From NCBI RefSeq assembly GCF_003334815.1, contig NZ_QOWO01000027.1: DNA of 56,519 nucleotides; one strand, written 5' to 3'. The first letter of the stretch is position 1. Every line of letters starts with the position of its first letter. Made by a program: the position numbers and the translations under genes. Below are positions 53,280-53,382 of the stretch, one piece after another. The stretch is from Escherichia coli (lineage in GTDB: Bacteria; Pseudomonadota; Gammaproteobacteria; Enterobacterales; Enterobacteriaceae). Below the pieces are notes generated by a model. That model ran no database searches. It had not been told where the DNA came from and saw only the letters and a program-made list of their open reading frames with translations.

Positions 53280-53382
53280 GCCGGATGCGGTGCTGCGCAC
53301 CTTATTTGGCCTAAAAAATCATTCAGATTCAATAAATTGCAACGTCATGTAGGCCGGATAGGGCGTTTACGCCGCATCCGGC
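53280..53382. repeat. BIME/RIP-type element: two inverted REPs flanking an IHF-like core
   Basis: gccggatgcggtgctgcgcaccttatttggcc ... attcaataaattgcaacg ... gtaggccggatagggcgtttacgccgcatccggca; the core is nearly identical to the element at 37350..37454. Confidence 0.75.

Follow-up and report, generated by a model that had tools for sequence, protein, structure and literature searches.

A REP-linker-REP repeat of the minority Y-Y form between uvrD and yigE of Escherichia coli, with probable roles as an RNA 3' barrier and an IHF site

What kind of sequence lies between the convergent genes uvrD and yigE of Escherichia coli, and what might it do there? The question was raised by a first-pass annotation of a 56,519-nucleotide stretch of DNA (contig NZ_QOWO01000027.1 of assembly GCF_003334815.1, hereafter the window), in which a REP-IHF-REP element was described just after uvrD. 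Such elements have been known since 1991-1993, and protection of mRNA 3' ends and IHF binding are their textbook roles. They are met under several names: the BIME-1 class is said to belong to the Gilson/Bachellier classification, the RIP (repetitive IHF-binding palindromic element) reportedly to Oppenheim et al. (1993), the RIB to Boccard and Prentki (1993), and the REP or palindromic unit itself to Stern et al. (1984) and Higgins et al. The uvrD/yigE element is of this already known repeat kind, in a minority Y-Y form. In our view it is probably a Y-Y variant of the REP-linker-REP (BIME-1/RIP/RIB) repeat that serves as a 3' barrier in RNA and as an IHF site in DNA.

Read directly, the element occupies window positions 53279-53383 in the uvrD/yigE intergenic region and has the sequence TGCCGGATGCGGTGCTGCGCACCTTATTTGGCCTAA-AAAATCATTCAGATTCAATAAATTGCAACGTCAT-GTAGGCCGGATAGGGCGTTTACGCCGCATCCGGCA (Table 1). 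The earlier description, i.e. a REP-IHF-REP element at a gene junction of its own, holds; its limits of 53280-53382 fall one base short on each side. uvrD is the upstream gene on the + strand, with a transcript that enters the element, and the gap between the uvrD stop codon and the element is 3 nt, with 4 nt to the first hairpin. The window is identical (100% over the 901 bases tested) to complete E. coli genomes including K-12 MG1655, a window coordinate plus 3,946,870 giving the NC_000913.3 coordinate. The RefSeq feature table of NC_000913.3 annotates no repeat feature over the element, and there is no entry for uvrD/yigE in the supplements of PMC3333891 and PMC12306157.

Table 1. Features of the uvrD/yigE junction and the related copy (window coordinates).
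Feature	Position	Strand	Details
uvrD (DNA helicase II) CDS	51113..53275	+	NC_000913.3 3997983-4000145; TAA stop 53273-53275
Left REP	53279..53314	+	Tail faces uvrD, head faces linker
L linker, 34 nt	53315..53348	+	Between both REPs
IHF-consensus core ATTCAATAAATTG	53327..53339	+	One mismatch to WATCAANNNNTTR
Right REP, Y class, GTAGGCCGGATAGGGCGTTTACGCCGCATCCGGCA	53349..53383	+	Head GTAGGCC faces linker
Term-seq 3' ends	53388..53389	+	4000259 (+), 1094 reads; 4000258 (+), 1027 reads
yigE (DUF2233 / phosphodiester glycosidase family)	53422..54186	-	Convergent, downstream of element
Rho-dependent termination region, best coordinate	53519	+	Antisense inside yigE; ~130 nt downstream
Sister copy, aslB/aslA	37349..37455	+	Y REP, linker, 'long' GCCGGAT-class REP

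The outer arms TGCCGGATGCGG (53279-53290) and CCGCATCCGGCA (53372-53383) are complementary at all 12 positions (100%), and two more inverted pairs inside the element delimit the individual REPs, each an imperfect palindrome. Folding of the complete element as + strand RNA gives -56.9 kcal/mol, where shuffled sequences average -35.1 +/- 3.7 kcal/mol (z = -5.9), and not one of 200 shuffles folds as stably. The REP-like secondary structure that had been proposed is found in each unit, with -17.4 kcal/mol for the left REP hairpin in the uvrD sense and -24.3 kcal/mol (z -3.7) for the right one; in the yigE sense the left REP reaches only -12 kcal/mol (z = -1.6). The REP 13-mer occurs 11 times where 3.2 are expected, and a 107-nt query covering the element finds at least 27 matching places in each of 5426 E. 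coli genomes (median at least 40). The element is a real, non-random feature, present as one copy at the locus with no tandem amplification. Both units have the properties of REPs, being G+C-rich imperfect palindromes of about 35 nt that form stem-loops, lie outside genes and are highly repeated, and they share with REPs the GTAG/CTAC head and a place at an mRNA 3' end, which REPs stabilise. The element differs from a single REP in being a composite of two REPs and a linker, and in that the K-12 left REP lacks the CTAC head, reading CTAA where the right REP has GTAG (53349-53352).

The linker consists of a left arm AAAATCATTCAGA, a core TTCAATAAATTGCA and a right arm ACGTCAT, and ATTCAATAAATTG places an IHF consensus inside it, as in RIPs and RIBs. 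IHF-like matches as good as ATTCAATAAATTG occur at 0.78 per kb across the window; the IHF core is identical in 8 of 8 aligned orthologous copies, in which the linker arms vary. Because this near-consensus site lies between two palindromes, IHF probably binds and bends the linker DNA, and binding at the uvrD/yigE copy is likewise probable from the behaviour of the repeat family. The text of an IHF ChIP-seq study (PMC3333857) mentions neither REP/BIME sequences nor uvrD. The Rfam family ES036 (CssrF, RF02751) gives a weak match to the linker (53315-53356, 19.5 bits against a gathering score of 37.6) and also matches window positions 37390-37411 at 30 bits; as these matches fall on the linker core, this 'sRNA' family may be modelled on a copy of the BIME-1 linker. 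The copy also invites comparison with the H' IHF site of lambda attP, in which we take an A tract to lie about 14 bp upstream of the WATCAANNNNTTR core, followed by GCA. The K-12 uvrD/yigE copy, reading AAAAAATCATTCAGATTCAATAAATTGCA, is similar in this respect, but has one mismatch in the core (ATTCAA against ATCAA), a different context and no recombination role. In K-12 the change from CTAC to CTAA extends the A tract upstream of the core from CAAAATC, with four A's, to AAAAAA, and it is this tract (53313-53319) that presumably resembles the lambda site.

How the element should be classified depends on its REPs. A BIME-1 combines a REP and an inverted REP (y and z1) with a long, well-conserved linker L that frequently holds an IHF site, and type I cleavage sites, cut between TGCC and TGAT, are present in z1 and z2 and absent from y (PMC3333891). 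With each bacterial species represented by a single genome, a scan for exact matches to GCCTA-N10-18-TTCAATAWATTGCA-N4-12-TAGGC returned at least 120 loci, in E. albertii, E. whittamii, E. coli, Pseudocitrobacter and Citrobacter. Side by side, the matches have the layout Y REP TGCCGGATGCGGCGTGAACGCCTTATCCGGCCTAC, linker CAAAATCGTGCAAA-TTCAATATATTGCA-GGAATCATG and Z1 REP GTAGGCCTGATAAGCGTAGCGCATCAGGCA; the orientation of the linker relative to Y and Z1 is constant in nearly all family members listed, and the arms and core of the uvrD/yigE linker correspond to those of the family. Among the 126 members sampled, 112 have a Z1 (GCCTGAT) REP 3' of the linker and only 7 a GCCGGAT REP, all of the latter being orthologues of the uvrD/yigE or aslB/aslA elements, which are the only loci in this sample with a Y-Y make-up.

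At uvrD/yigE both REPs read GCCGGAT. The right REP agrees with the family Y consensus at 33/35 positions and with the left REP of the aslB/aslA copy at 34/35. The left REP belongs to a 36-nt 'long' GCCGGAT class with inner stem GGTGC/GCACC and head GGCCTAA (ancestrally GGCCTAC), and agrees with Z1 at 25/36 positions in K-12 and 27/36 in its intact ancestral form; identity of the 'long' REP with Z1 was considered and rejected, the family scan showing Z1 to be the short GCCTGAT form. As both REPs are of the GCCGGAT (Y) class, the element is not a textbook BIME-1. It resembles BIME-1, RIP and RIB elements in its head-to-head REPs, in its conserved linker of about 34 nt with an IHF consensus, and in occurring singly at the 3' end of a transcription unit; the BIME-1 linker is there, but the pairing of one y with one z1 is not. 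In place of the canonical Z1 (GTAGGCCTGATAAGCGTAGCGCATCAGGCA) the Y REP is paired with the 'long' form, Y occupies the side of the linker usual for Z1, the core reads TTCAATAAATTGCA where most members have TTCAATATATTGCA, and the right arm is one nucleotide shorter than usual, at 8 nt instead of 9. Judged by its sequence, it is a RIP in the looser sense of REP, IHF site, REP. The Y half of naRNA4 (RF02564), a family whose gathering score is 59.5, aligns with the right REP at 44.8 bits and with the left REP of the aslB copy at 42.9 bits, too low in either case, and the Z2 half and short linker of naRNA4/REP325 (a BIME-2-type Y-Z2 pair) are absent; the element is therefore not a member of that family. 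An sRNA gene was also rejected, the Rfam matches being below threshold and reflecting the REP and linker repeats themselves.

The first-pass annotation had paired the element with the copy at aslB/aslA and given both the same structure. The two are indeed close relatives, with 85% identity over 128 alignment columns (against window 37340-37465) and, as had been noted, few differences in the IHF-like region: one base separates the 16-nt cores GATTCAATAAATTGCA (uvrD/yigE) and AATTCAATAAATTGCA (aslB/aslA). Both also show a rare combination, in which each REP is of the GCCGGAT class, the core is TTCAATAAATTGCA and the right arm, RCGTNNTG, has 8 nt. The pair is, however, part of the larger family found in the scan, and the likeness of structure holds at the level of REP-linker-REP only: from alignment, both copies consist of the same three modules with the REP types swapped relative to the linker. 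The left uvrD/yigE REP in its ancestral form (intact in E. coli 100117) matches the right REP of aslB at 33/37 positions, and by eye the inner stems of the two 'long' REPs differ by a compensatory G:C to A:T pair.

The aslB/aslA copy of K-12 is, moreover, the inverted form of the state seen elsewhere in Escherichia. Compared with E. coli EC42405, E. coli E69, E. whittamii and E. albertii, the interior of the element (~85 bp) is reversed in K-12, with collinear flanks and with breakpoints in the 11-bp outer inverted stems TGCCGGATGCG and CGCATCCGGCA. In RefSeq E. coli, at 95% identity or more, the non-K-12 orientation occurs in ~380 genomes and that of K-12 in at least 1843. An inversion of the uvrD/yigE copy was sought in the 5426 genomes and rejected, the best full-length match to an artificially inverted query being 84%. 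We tentatively suggest, at somewhat less than an even chance, that the two loci form a Y-L-Y' sub-family of BIME-1 whose near-identical inverted arms let the interior flip by recombination or template switching, the aslB/aslA flip being a standing polymorphism and the uvrD copy a fixed product. If so, Y-L-Y' elements would be natural 85-bp invertible segments, whose flipping reverses an asymmetric IHF site and exchanges which REP is transcribed first. A third aslB/aslA allele occurs in E. coli AH02 (L134:300-420), where the Y REP and linker are kept and the sequence breaks at the head of the right REP, GCAGCGTTCTGT being followed by GGATAC...; since the element joins there to a shortened aslA, annotated as an incomplete pseudogene, the endpoint of the deletion lies exactly at the REP head.

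Evidence on the RNA level comes from the Term-seq data of Adams et al. 2021 (PMC7815308, Supplementary file 1), with + strand 3' ends at 4000259 and 4000258. They sit 5-6 nt beyond the foot of the right REP and are followed by CCATCTTCAG, with no U tract, placing the element after the uvrD stop codon with a transcript 3' end at its downstream foot, as in RIPs and RIBs. The 3' end of uvrD had been expected at the first REP stem; no Term-seq 3' end in PMC7815308 maps to the first REP, so this expectation is not borne out, the end lying past the second REP instead. No - strand (yigE) 3' end is reported at the element in the same data. A Rho-dependent region follows downstream (PMC7815308, Supplementary file 2: 4000389 (+), Rho score 3.5, p = 3.1e-10), its coordinate being coarse given that the method uses 800-nt windows. 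In the established model, which these data fit, Rho-terminated transcripts are trimmed back to protective stem-loops, often REPs, and these fix where the 3' end lies at steady state (PMC6061677). We propose that transcription of uvrD would read through the element and be stopped by Rho inside antisense yigE, after which 3'-to-5' exonucleases would shorten the RNA until the G+C-rich hairpins of the REPs block them. The stable uvrD mRNA would therefore end a few nucleotides beyond the second REP. In having a 3' end a few nt past a hairpin, no U tract and Rho-dependent readthrough downstream, the element shows no behavioural difference from the protective 3' stem-loops of Rho-terminated transcripts, which are reportedly described by Dar and Sorek (2018) and Peters et al. 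(2012). As a correlation, the position of the 3' end is no proof that the element stabilises uvrD mRNA.

A further effect on translation is plausible. REPs at most 15 nt from a stop codon stall ribosomes, according to Liang et al. (2015) as cited in PMC12306157, and with the first hairpin about 3-4 nt past the uvrD stop, it could slow terminating ribosomes and lower UvrD output. On the DNA level, going by the family, IHF would bind the linker and bend the DNA between the two palindromes. An exonuclease-blocking 3' structure combined with a putative IHF site is thus the likely role of the element.

The junction (53276-53421) is cleanly biallelic. Among 5426 complete E. coli genomes, 3010 carry the element and 2414 a DUF62 gene instead. 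This gene allele is a 1029-bp segment (L002:3377-4405; also in L003, L004 and L133) whose - strand gene (L002:3421-4323) encodes a 300-aa secreted protein of the DUF62 / SAM hydroxide adenosyltransferase family (SAM_HAT). In its commonest forms (L002 and L003) the gene allele shares with the element allele ~20 nt after the uvrD stop, CGTTGCSGGATGCGGTGC, beyond which a global alignment of the two gives only scattered, unconvincing blocks; in AR_0077 the megablast match ends at the uvrD stop codon. The shared ~20 nt become, in the gene allele, part of a perfect hairpin of its own (-27 kcal/mol, z -4.1) 6 nt past the uvrD stop. A strong stem-loop after uvrD is kept in both alleles, and REP-IHF-REP is not required. 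Absence from 44.5% of the genomes means that the element is dispensable and its role replaceable, and, given the strong hairpin of both alleles, some 3' structure seems to be required there, though not this particular one.

The same element is found at the uvrD/yigE junction of E. whittamii and of the divergent E. coli strain 100117. Its left REP reads CCGG...CTAC in 100117, ACGG...CTAC in E. whittamii and TTGG...CTAA in K-12. Given the intact form in 100117 and the CTAC of E. whittamii, the K-12 left REP has decayed, with a loss of stability in the yigE sense only; from this comparison the loss of two C's and of the CTAC head looks like decay rather than maintenance. The K-12 change from CC to TT in the left REP (53289-53310) also creates a weak hairpin and a T-rich motif, GGTGCTGCGCACC TTATTTGG.

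Other readings of the locus have to be weighed against an exonuclease barrier with an IHF site. A stable palindrome between convergent genes recalls a bidirectional intrinsic (Rho-independent) terminator serving both uvrD and yigE, and a consensus scan does find one terminator-like motif, GGTGCTGCGCACC then TTATTTGG, at 53289-53301. A single motif is, however, what shuffled sequences yield (0.9 expected), no Term-seq 3' end falls on it, and neither outer stem is followed by a U tract, so that no G+C-rich hairpin with a U tract holds the observed 3' end, which runs on into CCATCTTCAG. Readthrough downstream is sensitive to bicyclomycin, i.e. Rho-dependent (PMC7815308). We therefore rejected an intrinsic terminator, which is highly improbable here. 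The element might also act mainly in DNA, as an IHF-bound architectural or topological site in nucleoid organisation or as a supercoil barrier, with RNA hairpins of secondary importance. The invariance of the near-consensus core speaks for this, as does the family, since REPs/BIMEs bind IHF, Pol I and gyrase (PMC3333891); against it, IHF binding at this copy is a prediction from the family, and the alternative allele is without any linker, from which it follows that an IHF site is not required at the junction. We regard a mainly DNA-level function as rather unlikely.

A neutral or selfish origin would account for the same observations in another way: the element would be a repeat remnant with no role at the locus, which gene conversion or the REP-associated transposase has spread or kept, and the 3' end a by-product to be expected of any stable hairpin. 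Its absence from so many E. coli genomes, the decaying changes in the K-12 left REP and the high repetition of the family are in keeping with this, and in vitro the REP-associated transposase, TnpA(REP), can cut BIMEs and recombine them (PMC3333891). Yet the junction is occupied by the element in E. coli, in a divergent strain of that species and in E. whittamii, its IHF core unchanged throughout, and a strong hairpin directly follows the uvrD stop whichever allele is present. A remnant without function is, on balance, unlikely, and the REP-linker-REP repeat with roles in RNA and DNA is retained as the preferred reading.

The uvrD/yigE element matters little alone, and its value is one of annotation: it accounts for the uvrD-sense 3' end at NC_000913.3 4000258/9, corrects the expectation of an end at the first REP, and assigns this copy, together with the one 16 kb away, to the Y-Y minority. 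The only results that are at all unusual, and mildly so, are the polymorphisms of rearrangement and gene replacement around both copies. The clean element-or-gene polymorphism, the Helicobacter-like DUF62 gene and the aslB/aslA inversion could be of use for studying how BIMEs move and rearrange.

Outside Escherichia and Shigella, the nearest relatives of the DUF62 protein are in Helicobacter pylori and H. acinonychis (~90% identity, full length), the H. pylori homologue lying in a genuine chromosomal context (L130-L132:3001-3903). The E. coli and H. pylori genes are 84.6% identical in DNA and 67% identical at third codon positions, and their G+C contents of 47% and 43%, respectively, lie between those of the two hosts. 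The comparison suggests an inter-phylum horizontal transfer between Escherichia and Helicobacter. We assume the H. pylori gene to be HP0709, from a position beside rsmH. In E. coli MLI109, a strain with the gene allele, yigE is annotated as a frameshifted pseudogene (L002:4406-5169).

BIME-1 elements were also met on contigs filed as Bacteroides, Desulfosporosinus, Alistipes and Collinsella. These elements are of the Escherichia type, and such contigs with non-enterobacterial labels are probably contaminated or mis-binned; on one of them (L069) the locus is in fact the uvrD/yigE junction of E. coli, its YigE being 99.6% identical.
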